Shown here one piece after another: positions 11,614 through 52,935 of a stretch of DNA of 64,000 bases. Under the pieces are notes generated by a model, which searched no databases, was not told the DNA's origin, and saw only the letters and a program-made list of their open reading frames with translations. How positions within the stretch are numbered: position 1 is the first letter of the stretch; every line of letters begins with the position of its first letter. The position numbers and the translations under genes were made by a program. Source of the stretch: Escherichia coli (lineage in GTDB: Bacteria; Pseudomonadota; Gammaproteobacteria; Enterobacterales; Enterobacteriaceae); NCBI RefSeq assembly GCF_050920415.1, contig NZ_CP169309.1. One strand, written 5' to 3'.

Positions 11614-11628
11614 GCAATAATTGTGCCA
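11614..11628 (-). promoter_or_regulatory. sigma54 (-24/-12) promoter for hypA: TGGCAC-aatta-TTGC on minus strand
   Basis: Plus strand reads GCAATAATTGTGCCA; exact match to TGGCAC-N5-TTGC. Confidence 0.8.
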
Positions 11629-39515: not shown

Positions 39516-40656
<1,141 letters not shown>

Positions 40657-47031: not shown

Positions 47032-48615
<1,584 letters not shown>

Positions 48616-48623
48616 CAGAAAAG

Positions 48624-48696
48624 AAAAAGGCCACTCGTGAGTGGCCAAAATTTCATCTCTGAATTCAGGGATGATGATAACAAATGCGCGTCTTTC
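48624..48696 (-). ncRNA. micA: MicA (SraD) small RNA, sigmaE-dependent, Hfq-binding
   Basis: Minus-strand sequence GAAAGACGCGCATTTGTTATCATCATCCCTGAATTCAGAGATGAAATTTTGGCCACTCACGAGTGGCCTTTTT matches MicA as I recall it, including the terminal hairpin plus U-tract. Confidence 0.9.
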
Positions 48697-48702
48697 ATAT
48701 AC

Positions 48703-48731
48703 TCAGACTCGCCAGGGAAGAAAGAGTTCAG
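48703..48731 (-). promoter_or_regulatory. sigmaE-type promoter of micA (-35 TGAACTC, -10 TCTGA)
   Basis: Minus-strand CTGAACTC...GTCTGAG just upstream of the MicA 5' end. Confidence 0.7.
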
Positions 48732-48764
48732 AAAATTTTTAAAAAAATTACCGGAGGTGGCTAA

Positions 48765-49280
48765 ATGCCGTTGTTAGATAGCTTCACAGTCGATCATACC
48801 CGGATGGAAGCGCCTGCAGTTCGGGTGGCGAAAACAATGAACACCCCGCATGGCGACGCAATCACCGTGTTCGATCTGCGCTTCTGCGTGCCGAACAAAG
48901 AAGTGATGCCAGAAAGAGGGATCCATACCCTGGAGCACCTGTTTGCTGGTTTTATGCGTAACCATCTGAACGGTAATGGCGTTGAGATTATCGATATCTC
49001 GCCAATGGGCTGCCGCACCGGTTTTTATATGAGTCTGATTGGTACGCCAGATGAGCAGCGTGTTGCTGATGCCTGGAAAGCGGCAATGGAAGACGTGCTG
49101 AAAGTGCAGGATCAGAATCAGATCCCGGAACTGAACGTCTACCAGTGTGGTACTTATCAGATGCATTCGTTGCAGGAAGCGCAGGATATTGCGCGTAATA
49201 TCCTGGAACGTGACGTACGCATCAACAGCAACGAAGAGTTGGCGCTGCCGAAAGAAAAGTTGCAGGAATTGCACATCTAG
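48765..49280 (+). CDS. luxS: S-ribosylhomocysteine lyase (AI-2 synthase)
   Basis: 171-aa ORF; HxxEH metal motif (HTLEHL). Confidence 0.97.
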
Positions 49281-49293
49281 TCAATTGAAGAGG

Positions 49294-49324
49294 CCGGGCA
49301 GGTGATATCACCGCCCGGTTTTTA
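49294..49324. terminator. Strong near-palindromic hairpin (CCGGGCAGGTGATATCACCGCCCGG) plus T-run; luxS terminator, directly abutting the stop codon of the accessory HD/kinase gene on the opposite strand
   Basis: 25-nt near-perfect palindrome followed by TTTTTATT. Confidence 0.8.
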
Positions 49325-50437
49325 TTACCTGTCAGTCACCCGATATTCCACGCTATGTGCTTCATCAGGTTGAGGAACTTCCAGCCTTGAGGCCATCCGC
49401 ATCACGACCGCTTCAGGAACGGCATACTCGCGCCTGGCATTTTGCTGCTTCCATTGCGCCCACGGTACTTCCAGATAAACGATTTTTACTCGTGCACCGT
49501 AAGCCGTAAACAGACTGATGAGCTGGCTACGCAACTGGCGGGTAATGTTCGTTGCATTCCAGATGAACGGCTTCTTCTGGCGTAAAAAAACGCGCGCTTC
49601 TTCTTTTGCCTGTTGCACAATACGCCCGGTGGCGGTTTTGTCGTCCGGACTGGCATTGATTCGCCGCCGCATATCATCAAGGCTGATAACGTTCACTCTC
49701 TGGCACTGTTCACTGATAAAGCGATCTTTGCCCATACCCGGTAAACCACACAGCAAAATAACCTCAAAAGATTCAGCCTCCCAGGGAACAAAATCAGGAG
49801 AACTTTGTTCATGGGTCAGGTAATGCCAGCGTGCGGAATCCGAAGCGAATGAACGCACTTTTCCCCAGCATTGTTGCTCCTGGCAAAATAGCTCGAACAG
49901 ATCGATGCGTTCCAGCATTGATTGCTGATCATGACAATGGCGACCAAGCAGATCGGCACGAGCAAGCAAAGCGAGCAGACGCGTGTCGATACGCATTGCA
50001 GCCGTGAGCAGCAAACGCTCCGGTTCCGGACGTTCCAGTAACCATAGCGGTAACCCATGCAGACGCACCAGTGCAACAATTTGCTCGCGTAGCACGAACG
50101 GCGTCGGGATATCGCGCCATAAAATTTGTCGGGCCGTCAATTCACCCCGACGAGCATGACCAGGAGACTGAATACGTCCGTTTTCCTGCACGGTAGTACT
50201 GCGCTTTTCAACGTCATGCAATAACGCCGCCGCCCATAAAATTTCCTGCTGCTGAGCGGGGAGTTGCTGAAACTCAGCCATCGCAACGAGTGCGTTCAGC
50301 ACCATTTCAGTATGCACACCAACGTCGCCTTCACCATGATGCTCCGGGTCTTGCGGCGTGTTATGCATATCCTCAACCCAGCTAAAACGCTGGCGTAGCG
50401 TCGACCAGCGTTTGTCGTCGGTAAGTTGCCAAATCAT
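49325..50437 (-). CDS. HD-domain phosphohydrolase fused to P-loop polynucleotide-kinase-like domain; putative RNA end-healing enzyme, accessory gene
   Basis: 370-aa ORF; HD motif (H..., LLHDVEK around residues 33-80); Walker A GLPGMGKD (res 231-238) and Walker-B-like VISLDD; ATGA start/stop overlap with the upstream ligase gene. Confidence 0.7.
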
Positions 50438-51141
50438 GACTGTTCTCCATAAGCGAACTCATGGGCCATCCGCGCCCGTCGCCAGTGGCGTTTCCAGTGC
50501 TCGGTGGTTTTGACATGATTTTTGCGTACATACTTGAAGACGTTATGCGAAAAGTCAGCGACGGAAAACGCATCACTATTCCGGCTGACAATGCCTTCCA
50601 GCGTACAGGGTTGCCCGGTTTGCGTATCCCAGGGATCGAACGCGCCGCGCGCATTGGTCAGCGCCAGAAAATCACGTTGCCAGCTTTTTTCATCATTCCC
50701 CGGCTGCGGGCCGGAGATTTCGGGAACGCAGGGGAAATCAAACAGAGCGGCGTAAAACTGCACCTCTTCCCAGCTCAGCCACATATCCTGGCAGCGAACG
50801 GCAAACAGATAAAAATCCTGCTCCAGGGCGCGATATTCAATCGAATGAACGGCATAAAGATTTTCACCAAACAACTCCAGATCGCCGAGATCGTTTTTCA
50901 GCAGTTGCCAGCGTTGGCGAATTTTATAGGTCCATGCCGATTGTGTAGGCGCGGCATGGGAACGGGCAAACACGCCGTAGCGGTTAAGGCAGTTATTTTC
51001 ACCGTCGAGTTTTTCTGTGTGCACCAATTGCGTGATGGCCTGTAAATCCTGCCAGTAATCGGTGTTAATACGGTCATCGCTGGTGGTGCCAGGGGAGAAA
51101 GGATAATGCCAGGTTCTCCCGTATTTACGTTGGGTATTCAT
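50434..51141 (-). CDS. ATP-dependent RNA-ligase-family protein (covalent nucleotidyltransferase), accessory gene
   Basis: 235-aa ORF; motif I KLDGEN (Lys44), motif III-like FGENLYAV, motif IV EGIVSR, motif V FKYVRK. Confidence 0.7.
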
Positions 51142-51361
51142 AATAATCCATTATTTTTTGTGTAATAAACGTACGCCCGCGAGGGTGCGAGTTATGGGGT
51201 TAAAAAAAATGTGAGTATCACCCGCGAAAGCGAGGGCGAAGAAAAAAGAGAGTTAACAACCTGAGCGAATGCTCAGAACCGGTTAATGGTGAATGGAAGA
51301 GTTTGGGGCGGCGAAAAGATACACCGTTTGAGATGATAAAACAACCGTTTACAGAATGAGC

Positions 51362-51389
51362 AAATAAAAAGGGAGCCGCAGCTCCCTTT
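51362..51389 (-). terminator. Rho-independent terminator after emrB
   Basis: Minus-strand GGGAGC-tgcg-GCTCCC hairpin followed by TTTTTATTT. Confidence 0.8.
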
Positions 51390-51396
51390 GACAACC

Positions 51397-52935
51397 TTAG
51401 TGCGCACCGCCTCCGCCGCCACCTGCGCCAAATGGCGGTTTAGCAAACCACACCAGCCCCAGCAGGACGAGGAATATCCCGGCTGACATCCAGAAGATCT
51501 CATTGGCGGAAATAATCAGCCCCTGATTGGTGATCTGCTGGGCAATCCAGCCTGATGCCTGTTGTTGCGTCATCCCCAGCCCTTCCAGTTGGCTGTACAT
51601 CGCCTGAGCGTTCGGGTTAAACGGGTTTACCGACTCGGTTAACTGTGCGTGGTGCATCGACTCGCGGTTAGTCCACATGGTGGTGGTGATGGATGTGCCG
51701 ATAGACCCCGCCAGCGTTCGCGTAAAGTTAGAGAGGCTCGATGCCGCCGCCAGTCGTTCCGGTGGCAAACCAGACAGCGTAATGGTGGTCAGCGGCATAA
51801 AGAAGCAGGCCACTGCGAAGCCCTGGATAAACTGCGGCCAGGCCGACGCACCAAAATCCATACCCGGTTCAAAGGTATAGGCACGCCAGTAGAAGCAGAC
51901 GGCATACATAATAAAGCTGAAGGTTACCAGCCGCCGCATATCCAGTTTATGCGCGAAGCGGCCGATAATCGGCGACAGGATCACCGGAATAATCCCTACC
52001 GGCGCAGAGGCCAAACCTGCCCAGGTCGCCGTGTAACCGTAGACCTCCTGCAACAACTGCGGCAGCAGAACAATCGCGCCGAAGTAGAGCATATACGCGA
52101 GGCTGATACACAAGCAGCCGATGGTGAAGTTGCGCGACTTAAACAACGACAGATCGACTATCGGGTTATCGTCGGTCAGCTCCCAGACAATCAGGAAGCA
52201 GATAGCCACCACCGCCACCACGGTGAGGATGATTATTTCCTGCGATGAGAACCAGTCCAGCTCTTTACCGCGGTCGAGCATAATCTGCAGGCTGCCGATA
52301 CCAATCACCAGCAGTGCCAGCCCCACGGCATCAATCCGCCGCCGTTCGGTGCGGGTTTCGCGTCCGCGCAGGGTTTGCAGTGTCATCAACACCACCGCCA
52401 CGCCAATCGGCACGTTGATGAAGAATATCCAGCCCCAGTGGTAATTATCGCTGATATAACCGCCGAGGATCGGGCCGCAAATTGGCGCGACAATCACCGT
52501 CATCGACCACAACGCCAGCGCGATCGAGCGTTTTGCTGGCGGGTAGTTATTCAGCAATAGACTTTGCGAAAGCGGGATCAACGGCCCGGCGACAATTCCC
52601 TGAATCACGCGGAAGAAGATCAGCATATTCAGGCTGCTGGAGACACCACACGCCCACGACGCAATAGCAAAGGCGATGGTCGACCAGAGGAACAGCTTCA
52701 CTTCCCCAACGCGCTTTGCCAGCCAGCCGGTAAGCGGGATCGAGATGGCATTCGCCACCCCGAAAGAAGTGATTACCCACGTTCCCTGGCTGAGCGATGA
52801 GCCCAGATTCCCGGCGATAGTGGGGATCGCCACGTTAGCAATGGTGGAGTCCAGCACCTGCATGAATGTCGCCAGTGACAGCGCAATCGTCATAATGACC
52901 AGTTGCGCGCCTTCCAGCGGTTTTTGCTGTTGCAT
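51397..52935 (-). CDS. emrB: Multidrug efflux MFS transporter EmrB (14-TMS DHA2 family)
   Basis: 512 aa from MQQQKPLEGAQLVIMTIALSLATF; C-terminal glycine run. Confidence 0.95.
   Translation of the reverse strand: MQQQKPLEGAQLVIMTIALSLATFMQVLDSTIANVAIPTIAGNLGSSLSQGTWVITSFGVANAISIPLTGWLAKRVGEVKLFLWSTIAFAIASWACGVSSSLNMLIFFRVIQGIVAGPLIPLSQSLLLNNYPPAKRSIALALWSMTVIVAPICGPILGGYISDNYHWGWIFFINVPIGVAVVLMTLQTLRGRETRTERRRIDAVGLALLVIGIGSLQIMLDRGKELDWFSSQEIIILTVVAVVAICFLIVWELTDDNPIVDLSLFKSRNFTIGCLCISLAYMLYFGAIVLLPQLLQEVYGYTATWAGLASAPVGIIPVILSPIIGRFAHKLDMRRLVTFSFIMYAVCFYWRAYTFEPGMDFGASAWPQFIQGFAVACFFMPLTTITLSGLPPERLAAASSLSNFTRTLAGSIGTSITTTMWTNRESMHHAQLTESVNPFNPNAQAMYSQLEGLGMTQQQASGWIAQQITNQGLIISANEIFWMSAGIFLVLLGLVWFAKPPFGAGGGGGGAH

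Follow-up and report, generated by a model that had tools for sequence, protein, structure and literature searches.

A candidate weak promoter and a conserved leader in front of an RNA ligase/HD-Pnk cassette of Escherichia coli

The 64,000-nucleotide stretch of Escherichia coli DNA analysed here (contig NZ_CP169309.1, referred to as the window) carries a two-gene RNA-repair cassette, in which a gene for an RNA ligase family protein is followed by a gene for an HD-Pnk protein, and it raises the question of how such a cassette is expressed. The ligase/HD-Pnk pair is a widespread and functionally unsolved RNA-repair module. In the window, a spacer of 255 bp (51142-51396) lies between the ligase gene and emrB, and the original prediction, made from the sequence alone, had regarded this spacer as the control region of the cassette. 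Our analysis agrees, as the spacer contains a terminator, followed by a promoter footprint and a leader that are both conserved. We favour, with moderate confidence, the explanation that the spacer contains the cassette's own weak promoter and a cis-acting leader which limits expression, while the way in which the leader would act is inferred. A promoter followed by a structured leader is a plausible and ordinary kind of control region, and this particular one is not known to have been described before. Features are given below on the minus strand, the strand of emrB and of the cassette, unless indicated otherwise, and lineages are denoted by L numbers.

Terminator and promoter footprint

The spacer begins at the emrB stop codon and not at the emrB terminator as had been supposed earlier; the terminator (51368-51389) lies inside the spacer and starts 7 nt past the stop codon. 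It consists of AAAGGGAGC-UGCG-GCUCCCUUU followed by UUAUUU, with nine pairs (five of them G-C) and a predicted energy of -15.1 kcal/mol, and thus has the stem-loop and U-tract of an intrinsic (Rho-independent) terminator. The hairpin is kept in other genera through compensatory arms (GGGATC/GATCCC, GGGGACC/GGGTCC and GGGGCC/GGCCTC), and it accompanies the leader in every lineage except L089, in which emrB ends with another terminator, of the K-12 type, and additional DNA is present. Because a terminator of -15 kcal/mol intervenes, read-through from emrB into the cassette is unlikely. The proposal that expression is either conditional or driven by read-through is therefore retained in part: weak or conditional expression is reasonable given that no strong promoter or Shine-Dalgarno (SD) sequence is present, but read-through from emrB is disfavoured.

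Alignment of 13 spacers reveals a promoter footprint, TTG-N20-TAT..T, which is invariant and located 23 bases past the terminator. In the window it corresponds to a predicted -35 hexamer TTGTTT (51339-51344), of which TTG (T57 T58 G59) is invariant in 13/13 aligned spacers, and to a predicted -10 hexamer TATCTT (51316-51321) placed 17 bp past the -35, with invariant positions T80, A81, T82 and T85. The earlier statement that no strong sigma70 promoter exists is borne out by a consensus scan, which gives none at or above 9/12 on the minus strand of the spacer. In Superficieibacter the homologous -35 hexamer reads TTGCAA, as it does by inspection in Enterobacter BIGb0383, and the homologous promoter TTGCAA-17-TATTAT of the Superficieibacter lineage L013 is called by the scan at 9/12. 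A second, leaderless-type promoter (AATAAT at the start region) was considered and rejected, being called in L013 only, with a -35 that by inspection is not conserved elsewhere.

The -10 hexamer is followed by CGCCGCCCC (51305-51313), nearly invariant across lineages, which comprises a GC-rich discriminator and the predicted transcription start. The stretch GCCGCCCC at the predicted start is present in every lineage, and a G is located 7-8 nt past the -10 hexamer in every lineage (51309 in the window). We infer from this arrangement that transcription starts at about G51309, resulting in an untranslated leader of about 168 nt. No literature on transcription of this locus was found.

Inducible control of other kinds was also considered. 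SOS induction, which had been suggested as one of the conditions to examine, is not favoured, since no match to the LexA operator CTGT-N8-ACAG with up to one mismatch is present within 51142-51396. A sigma54 promoter (TGGCAC-N5-TTGC, up to two mismatches) is likewise missing from these positions, the nearest match (51097-51111) being inside the ligase open reading frame (ORF).

A conserved, C-rich and structured leader

Over the 168 nt predicted to form the 5' leader of the ligase/HD-Pnk mRNA (51142-51309), E. coli and the other genera of the main group are 75-79% identical. Shuffled controls aligned in the same way give only 55-58% (maximum 0.63), and the four-fold degenerate sites of the ligase and HD-Pnk genes are 33-55% identical across genera, which is near saturation. 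The leader is thus far more conserved than both, indicating non-coding DNA under purifying selection. Near-invariant stretches are found in the first ~65 nt past the -10 hexamer and in the ~20 nt before the ATG, while the middle of the leader, where the copies of the CCCGCGA motif discussed below are situated, is the least conserved in sequence. The most conserved parts of the spacer, namely the promoter footprint, GCCGCCCC, CUUCCAUUCAC, the flanks of hairpin H1 and the start region, were not visible to the original prediction.

In composition the leader is C-rich and G-poor. The window leader has a C/G ratio of 1.96, and the values of all lineages fall within 1.5-2.2, against a 99th percentile of 1.77 for 180-nt windows. 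Long, untranslated RNA that is rich in C and poor in G is the classical substrate of Rho, and the leader has the composition expected for Rho-dependent attenuation (a rut site). A search against Rfam 15 with cmscan (E <= 10, positions 48500-52000) gave no match in the leader; it returned only the small RNA (sRNA) MicA, located elsewhere, a fragment of STnc290 covering the terminator only (18.9 bits against a gathering threshold of 60) and a chance match to a snoRNA on the plus strand.

Proceeding from the 5' end, a single-stranded block CUUCCAUUCAC (51289-51299) is near-invariant and contains UCCAUU, which is complementary to the sequence AAUGGA (51147-51152) of the start region. Long-range pairing between the two is present in the minimum-energy fold of 6/11 lineages. 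The block is followed by hairpin H1, UCUGAGC-AUUC-GCUCAGG (51260-51277, -9.6 kcal/mol), and then by a conserved GUUGUU. H1 is the CTGAGC-n4-GCTCAG hairpin noticed earlier (CTGAGC-ATTC/GAAT-GCTCAG), which we find at 51261-51276. In the alignment, 99.4% of the cells of H1 are paired, and three pairs have changed on both sides (UCUGAGC/GCUCAGG versus GUCGGGC/GCCCGGU). The loop varies in sequence and in length (4-6 nt), and the G.U pairs of the stem fit only the minus-strand RNA, being mismatches on the other strand. The variable spacing of the half-sites and the wobble pairs therefore favour an RNA hairpin over a DNA operator. By scan, H1 is terminator-like in L008, L089 and L019, as is H2 in L008 (Kosakonia).

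Hairpin H2, CGCCC-U-CG-CUUU-CG-C-GGGUG (51219-51238, -9.7 kcal/mol), lies in the less conserved middle of the leader. As the MAFFT alignment of this element is unreliable, per-sequence folding was used instead, and it predicts a hairpin at the H2 position in nearly all of 22 sequences, with differing arms (CACCC/GGGUG, GCCC/GGGC, CCCG/CGGG and UUUCCCG/CGGGAAA). In the E. coli alleles L004 and L106 the inner pairs of H2 are altered only to G.U. The G.U pairs and the restriction of the variation to C-to-U changes fit a minus-strand RNA. Further downstream, a U-run followed by a conserved UUAACCC(C) block (51196-51209) is present, of which AACCC is common to the Escherichia, Klebsiella, Kosakonia and Phytobacter lineages, and then a local hairpin H3, CGCACCCUCGCGGGCG (51174-51189, -5.9 kcal/mol). 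The segment GGGCG (51174-51178) of H3 is also the 3' arm of a candidate long-range helix P1, in which it pairs with CGCCC (51306-51310), so that it can belong to either. P1 is predicted from a single sequence as well as from the alignment. The overall covariation score of the alignment is 0.094 against 0.055 in shuffles, and none of 500 shuffles reaches 0.094, with only ~8 lineages contributing.

The hairpins also account for the motif CCCGCGA, which had been proposed as a repeated regulatory element of the spacer. The two copies are present on the plus strand as CCCGCGAGGG (51176-51185) and CCCGCGAAAG (51221-51230), a few bases away from the coordinates first assigned to them (about 51172-51181 and 51224-51240), and the 7-mer itself occupies 51176-51182 and 51221-51227, 45 bp apart. 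Such a repetition is at chance level: an exact direct repeat of at least 7 nt occurs in 97% of dinucleotide shuffles of the 255-bp spacer, and five repeated 7-mers are observed against 4.2 in the shuffles. Perfect 6-bp stem-loops are, in contrast, enriched in the spacer (4 against 0.35 expected). On the minus strand both copies read UCGCGGG and form the 3' arms of two hairpins (UCGCGGGUG and UCGCGGGCG), the first copy being contained in H3 and the second forming the 3' arm of H2. In other genera the shape of H2 is kept without this sequence, so the proposal of a repeated motif is not upheld.

At the 3' end of the leader, an A-rich linker and the start region, ACACAAAAAAUAAUGGAUUAUU (51142-51165), precede the ligase gene. 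As was noted earlier, no good SD sequence is available here; the sole SD-like element is a weak GGA (51147-51149), 5 nt ahead of the ATG. The sequence AAUAAUGGAUUAU(C/U)AUG is almost invariant across genera. An out-of-frame AUG (51149-51151) is located 10 nt upstream of the ligase start in most lineages and is missing in L012, L091 and L095. A leader peptide or upstream ORF was rejected, because no ORF is conserved and the upstream AUG is missing in these three lineages. A site for CsrA was rejected as well, as the leader contains by inspection a single GGA. The E. coli-like metagenome contig L095 has AAAGGA, a better SD, in place of AAUGGA.

Weighing the explanations

In the explanation we favour, transcription of emrB would stop at the strong intrinsic terminator (51368-51389), and the weak sigma70-type promoter TTGTTT-17-TATCTT would drive the cassette from about G51309. 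The leader would then keep the expression of the cassette low, and three routes may contribute to this. Transcription may terminate prematurely at the hairpins and U-rich sites of H1 and H2, or through the action of Rho on the long untranslated C-rich RNA. Translation of the ligase may be limited by the poor ribosome-binding site, which has GGA only and an out-of-frame AUG 10 nt upstream. The start site may also be masked by pairing with UCCAUU near the 5' end, a route to which we give little weight because no compensatory change accompanies the pairing and several lineages disrupt it. HD-Pnk would be translated by coupling to the ligase, given the ATGA overlap of the two genes and the presence of its own GGAG.

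Several observations weigh against this explanation. The window promoter matches the consensus at 7/12 positions, which is below the threshold of the scan, and was not called, and the start is a prediction from sequence. The U-tracts following H1 and H2 in the window are insufficient for a terminator call, and no upstream segment complementary to the 5' arm of H1, such as could form a mutually exclusive antiterminator, was seen by inspection. The folding z-score of the whole leader is only -1.86, and the number of independent lineages is only ~8, which makes the power to detect covariation low. The UCCAUU:AAUGGA pairing, without compensatory change, is broken in L012/L091, in L085/L096 and in L095. 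As the ligase is frameshifted in CFT073 and ATCC 25922, the locus may also be decaying in a part of the E. coli population.

The predicted helix P1 allows another explanation, in which the leader acts as an RNA switch that either resembles a riboswitch or senses a protein or RNA; we consider this unlikely. In such a switch, GCCC at the 5' end and the H3 5' arm CGCACC would compete for GGGCG; P1 would enclose H1, H2 and the anti-SD-like UCCAUU and leave the start region free, while the H3 state would let UCCAUU mask AAUGGA. Which of the two states forms would depend on a ligand, on a factor or on the condition of the 5' end. In keeping with this reading, both the single-sequence and the alignment-based predictions contain P1, P1 and UCCAUU:AAUGGA cross and hence would represent alternative states, and the conserved residues are located mostly in junctions with a variable H1 loop, a pattern typical of aptamers. 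L005 (Escherichia sp. MOD1-EC7003) has three private substitutions in the leader, two of which, C to U at 51307 and G to A at 51177, are complementary, restoring the P1 pair and breaking H3 (chance of such a double change about 0.1-1% by a rough estimate), and single changes in L006 and L091 give U.G. However, this is the single covarying event overall, and when counted from G51309, P1 is left with only 4 bp closing a loop of ~125 nt. In L013, L014, L087, L019 and L089 the aligned positions do not form P1 (87% paired); moreover, the leader matches no Rfam family, its distribution is narrow and nothing seen suggests a ligand. A more specific version, for which we see slightly less chance, holds that the leader is an undescribed structured regulatory RNA dedicated to an RNA-repair operon, switching between the P1 and masked states upon an RNA-damage signal, for example a metabolite, a fragment of damaged RNA, a protein or the chemistry of its own 5' end. 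If true, an RNA element would here control an RNA-repair system, which is rare; otherwise the leader is a routine addition to the 5' leaders of enterobacteria.

The other readings take the conserved elements apart. The promoter and H1 might constitute a separate sRNA gene. Its transcript of ~55-60 nt (GCCCC...CUCUUCCAUUCACC...H1-GUUGUU) would contain a CU-rich stretch able to pair in trans with ribosome-binding sites, and the cassette would be expressed only by read-through of H1. The first ~65 nt past the -10 are indeed the most conserved part of the spacer, CUCUUCC is anti-SD-like, and H1 with its tail is terminator-like in three lineages (L008, L089 and L019). However, the H1 tail of the window, UUGUUAAC, fails the rule of the terminator scan and makes a poor Hfq-type 3' end, the element was never found without the cassette, and conservation extends down to the ATG, so that we hold a separate sRNA gene to be improbable. 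It appears equally improbable that no independent promoter exists, with the cassette being silent or transcribed only by read-through from emrRAB and with the conservation reflecting shared descent or hitch-hiking. The weakness of the E. coli hexamers (7/12, uncalled by the scan) and the occurrence of the ligase as a pseudogene in some strains would agree with this. Yet the intervening -15 kcal/mol terminator is itself conserved, the leader is conserved far above the synonymous sites, and the promoter positions are invariant, with the hexamers of another genus being closer to the consensus. The promoter-leader block is also intact in L089 and L095 though other DNA separates it from emrB, namely the K-12-type terminator with extra DNA in the former and ~2 kb in the latter. 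Finally, the CTGAGC palindrome and both copies of CCCGCGA(R)(R)G could be DNA operators for a transcription factor. The copies are 45 bp apart, and H1 forms a perfect inverted repeat with the palindrome AACCGGTT on its flanks. We regard this as very improbable: the repeat is at chance level, the sequence of the H2 copy is unconserved in other genera where the hairpin is conserved, and the half-site spacing of 4-6 bp in H1, with G.U in place of Watson-Crick pairs, fits RNA and not a dimeric DNA binder. In addition, the cassette contains no regulator gene, and the spacer has neither a LexA nor a sigma54 site.

For the explanation we favour, a promoter of its own and a probably restrictive leader would indicate where to seek the inducing condition of the cassette, and hence its substrate. 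It also provides defined elements that can be mutated, namely the -10 hexamer, H1, H2, positions 51307 and 51177, and UCCAUU/AAUGGA.

The cassette, its distribution and related systems

The neighbourhood in the window comprises, from 5' to 3', gshA (47059-48615, plus strand), MicA, luxS (48765-49280, plus strand), the 370-aa gene, the 235-aa gene, the spacer and emrB/emrA/emrR, the last three starting from 51397 on the minus strand. The 235-aa gene (50434-51141, minus strand) is the RNA ligase family gene (Pfam PF09414, E = 5e-28; 'RNA ligase family protein' in RefSeq). The 370-aa gene (49325-50437, minus strand) encodes HD-Pnk, with an N-terminal HD domain (Pfam HD, 1.6e-3) and a C-terminal P-loop polynucleotide kinase (AAA_33, 2e-31); its NCBIfam matches are Pnkp, HDIG and CCA-enzyme, and its kinase domain matches structures of C. 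thermocellum Pnkp. The stop codon of the ligase overlaps the start codon of HD-Pnk (ATGA). Neither protein has a match among the defence systems of PADLOC, and the cassette contains no regulator gene and has no activator gene next to it. In a phmmer search against the sequences of the Protein Data Bank, the ligase protein matched no ligase structure, and no solved relative is detectable by sequence; the only matches, over residues 78-166, were hemocyanin chains of cephalopods (E = 4e-9), and no single stretch of them passed by itself.

The ligase and HD-Pnk genes are adjacent in 80/80 fetched loci from Enterobacterales and Bacteroidota. Together with the spacer they form a 2.1-kb indel bounded by the stop codons of emrB and luxS, starting just past the former and ending just short of the latter. 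This indel is found in 998 of 5426 complete E. coli genomes (~18%), including CFT073, Nissle 1917, ST131 and O145, and is chromosomal, single-copy and always at the luxS-emrB site in all 998 carriers. In genomes without the cassette, luxS and emrB are separated by 63 bp of unrelated sequence, in which another terminator is found. The reading of the leader as a repetitive extragenic element (REP, MITE) or a mobile element was rejected, as it occupies one place per genome in the 998 genomes; the model of the 5' module also matches once in the 64-kb window. The ligase is annotated by RefSeq as frameshifted in CFT073 (L102) and in Seattle 1946 = ATCC 25922 (L004), and the leader is intact in both.

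The same spacer, at the same position between emrB and the cassette, is present in Klebsiella spallanzanii, Kosakonia, three Phytobacter species and an uncultured Enterobacteriaceae genome, and also in two Superficieibacter species, Enterobacter sp. BIGb0383, a Salmonella-labelled contig and ten metagenome contigs, so that homologous spacers occur in at least six genera of Enterobacteriaceae. All ten metagenome matches to the H1 pattern (10/10) have the context emrB-leader-ligase-Pnk. In L095 (6182-8267), ~2 kb of extra DNA is located between emrB and the promoter-leader block. The leader was never met without the cassette, and the searches find it only in emrB-linked cassettes. It is absent from the plasmids, phages and viral contigs searched, it gives no match among 70 cassette loci not linked to emrB, and neither a leader hidden Markov model nor a covariance model of the 5' module detects it upstream of the cassettes of Serratia, Xenorhabdus, Providencia, Enterobacillus or Bacteroidota. 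The Enterobacillus cassette (L015:2216-2260 and L088) has a different genomic context, and a 10/12 promoter, TTGTCA-17-TATTAT followed by GCCGCCCC, lies upstream of it. By eye, this region shares with the leader GCCGCCCC, a hairpin past ACCGGG and UUAACCCC; as neither nhmmer nor the covariance model detects the similarity, homology was not counted. In Serratia (L016:718-4316; also L017, L018, L020 and L021), the ligase/HD-Pnk pair is located directly downstream of genes for an RtcB-family ligase (TIGR03073) and release factor H (prfH, TIGR03072). This four-gene cluster hints at a role of the cassette in the repair of the ribosome or rRNA.

The closest described system is that of Runella slithyformis, where an ATP-dependent ligase-like ORF is located directly upstream of HD-Pnk, with overlapping ends (Munir and Shuman 2017, as described in PMC6097658). 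The Runella ligase self-adenylylates and sealed none of the substrates tested, and its natural substrate is unknown (PMC6097658). The E. coli cassette has the same gene order, overlapping ORFs and the same HD plus P-loop kinase architecture, with a PF09414 ORF immediately upstream of and overlapping the kinase ORF, and is thus by arrangement a cassette of the Runella type, for which the biochemical results come from the Runella enzymes. The E. coli ligase is 62-67% identical to its Bacteroidota homologues. In contrast, the published account of Runella covers the enzymes and describes no promoter or leader, and nothing that corresponds to the enterobacterial leader precedes the cassettes of Bacteroidota, Serratia, Xenorhabdus and Providencia.

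As a control region, the spacer can be compared with three other kinds of system. The rpoS, mgtA and corA leaders of enterobacteria are long 5' untranslated regions with Rho-dependent or intrinsic attenuation. The cassette leader resembles this type in being a long (~170 nt), C-rich, G-poor RNA with hairpins that would connect a candidate sigma70 promoter to a first gene with a weak translation start, but it has no sequence or Rfam relation to these leaders and no leader peptide. RNA thermometers and translational riboswitches are leaders with an anti-SD segment, and the conserved CU-rich UCCAUU, complementary to the SD-like AAUGGA, is similar to such a segment. However, the cassette helix differs in having only 6 bp that close ~140 nt and in showing no compensatory change. 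The RNA-repair operon rtcBA is controlled by a sigma54 promoter and the activator RtcR. In both systems the enzymes under control act in RNA repair, and the need for them is expected to be only conditional, whereas the cassette has no sigma54 site and no adjacent activator, and its control appears to depend on sigma70 and a cis-acting leader.

Some other elements of the window were noticed during the analysis. The sRNA MicA (48625-48696, minus strand; Rfam RF00078, 83.9 bits) is located between gshA and luxS, as expected for a K-12-type neighbourhood. A GC-rich hairpin, CCGGGCGGTGATATCACCTGCCCGG (49281-49324), is present between the convergent stop codons of HD-Pnk and luxS, with a T-run on the luxS side only, and has the appearance of a luxS terminator that the cassette shares. 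The only zero-mismatch match to the sigma54 consensus in the window is TGGCACAATTATTGC (11614-11628, minus strand). A perfect CTGT-N8-ACAG palindrome, CTGTATGAGCATACAG (39518-39533), is unrelated to the spacer and looks like a genuine LexA box, possibly that of recA.

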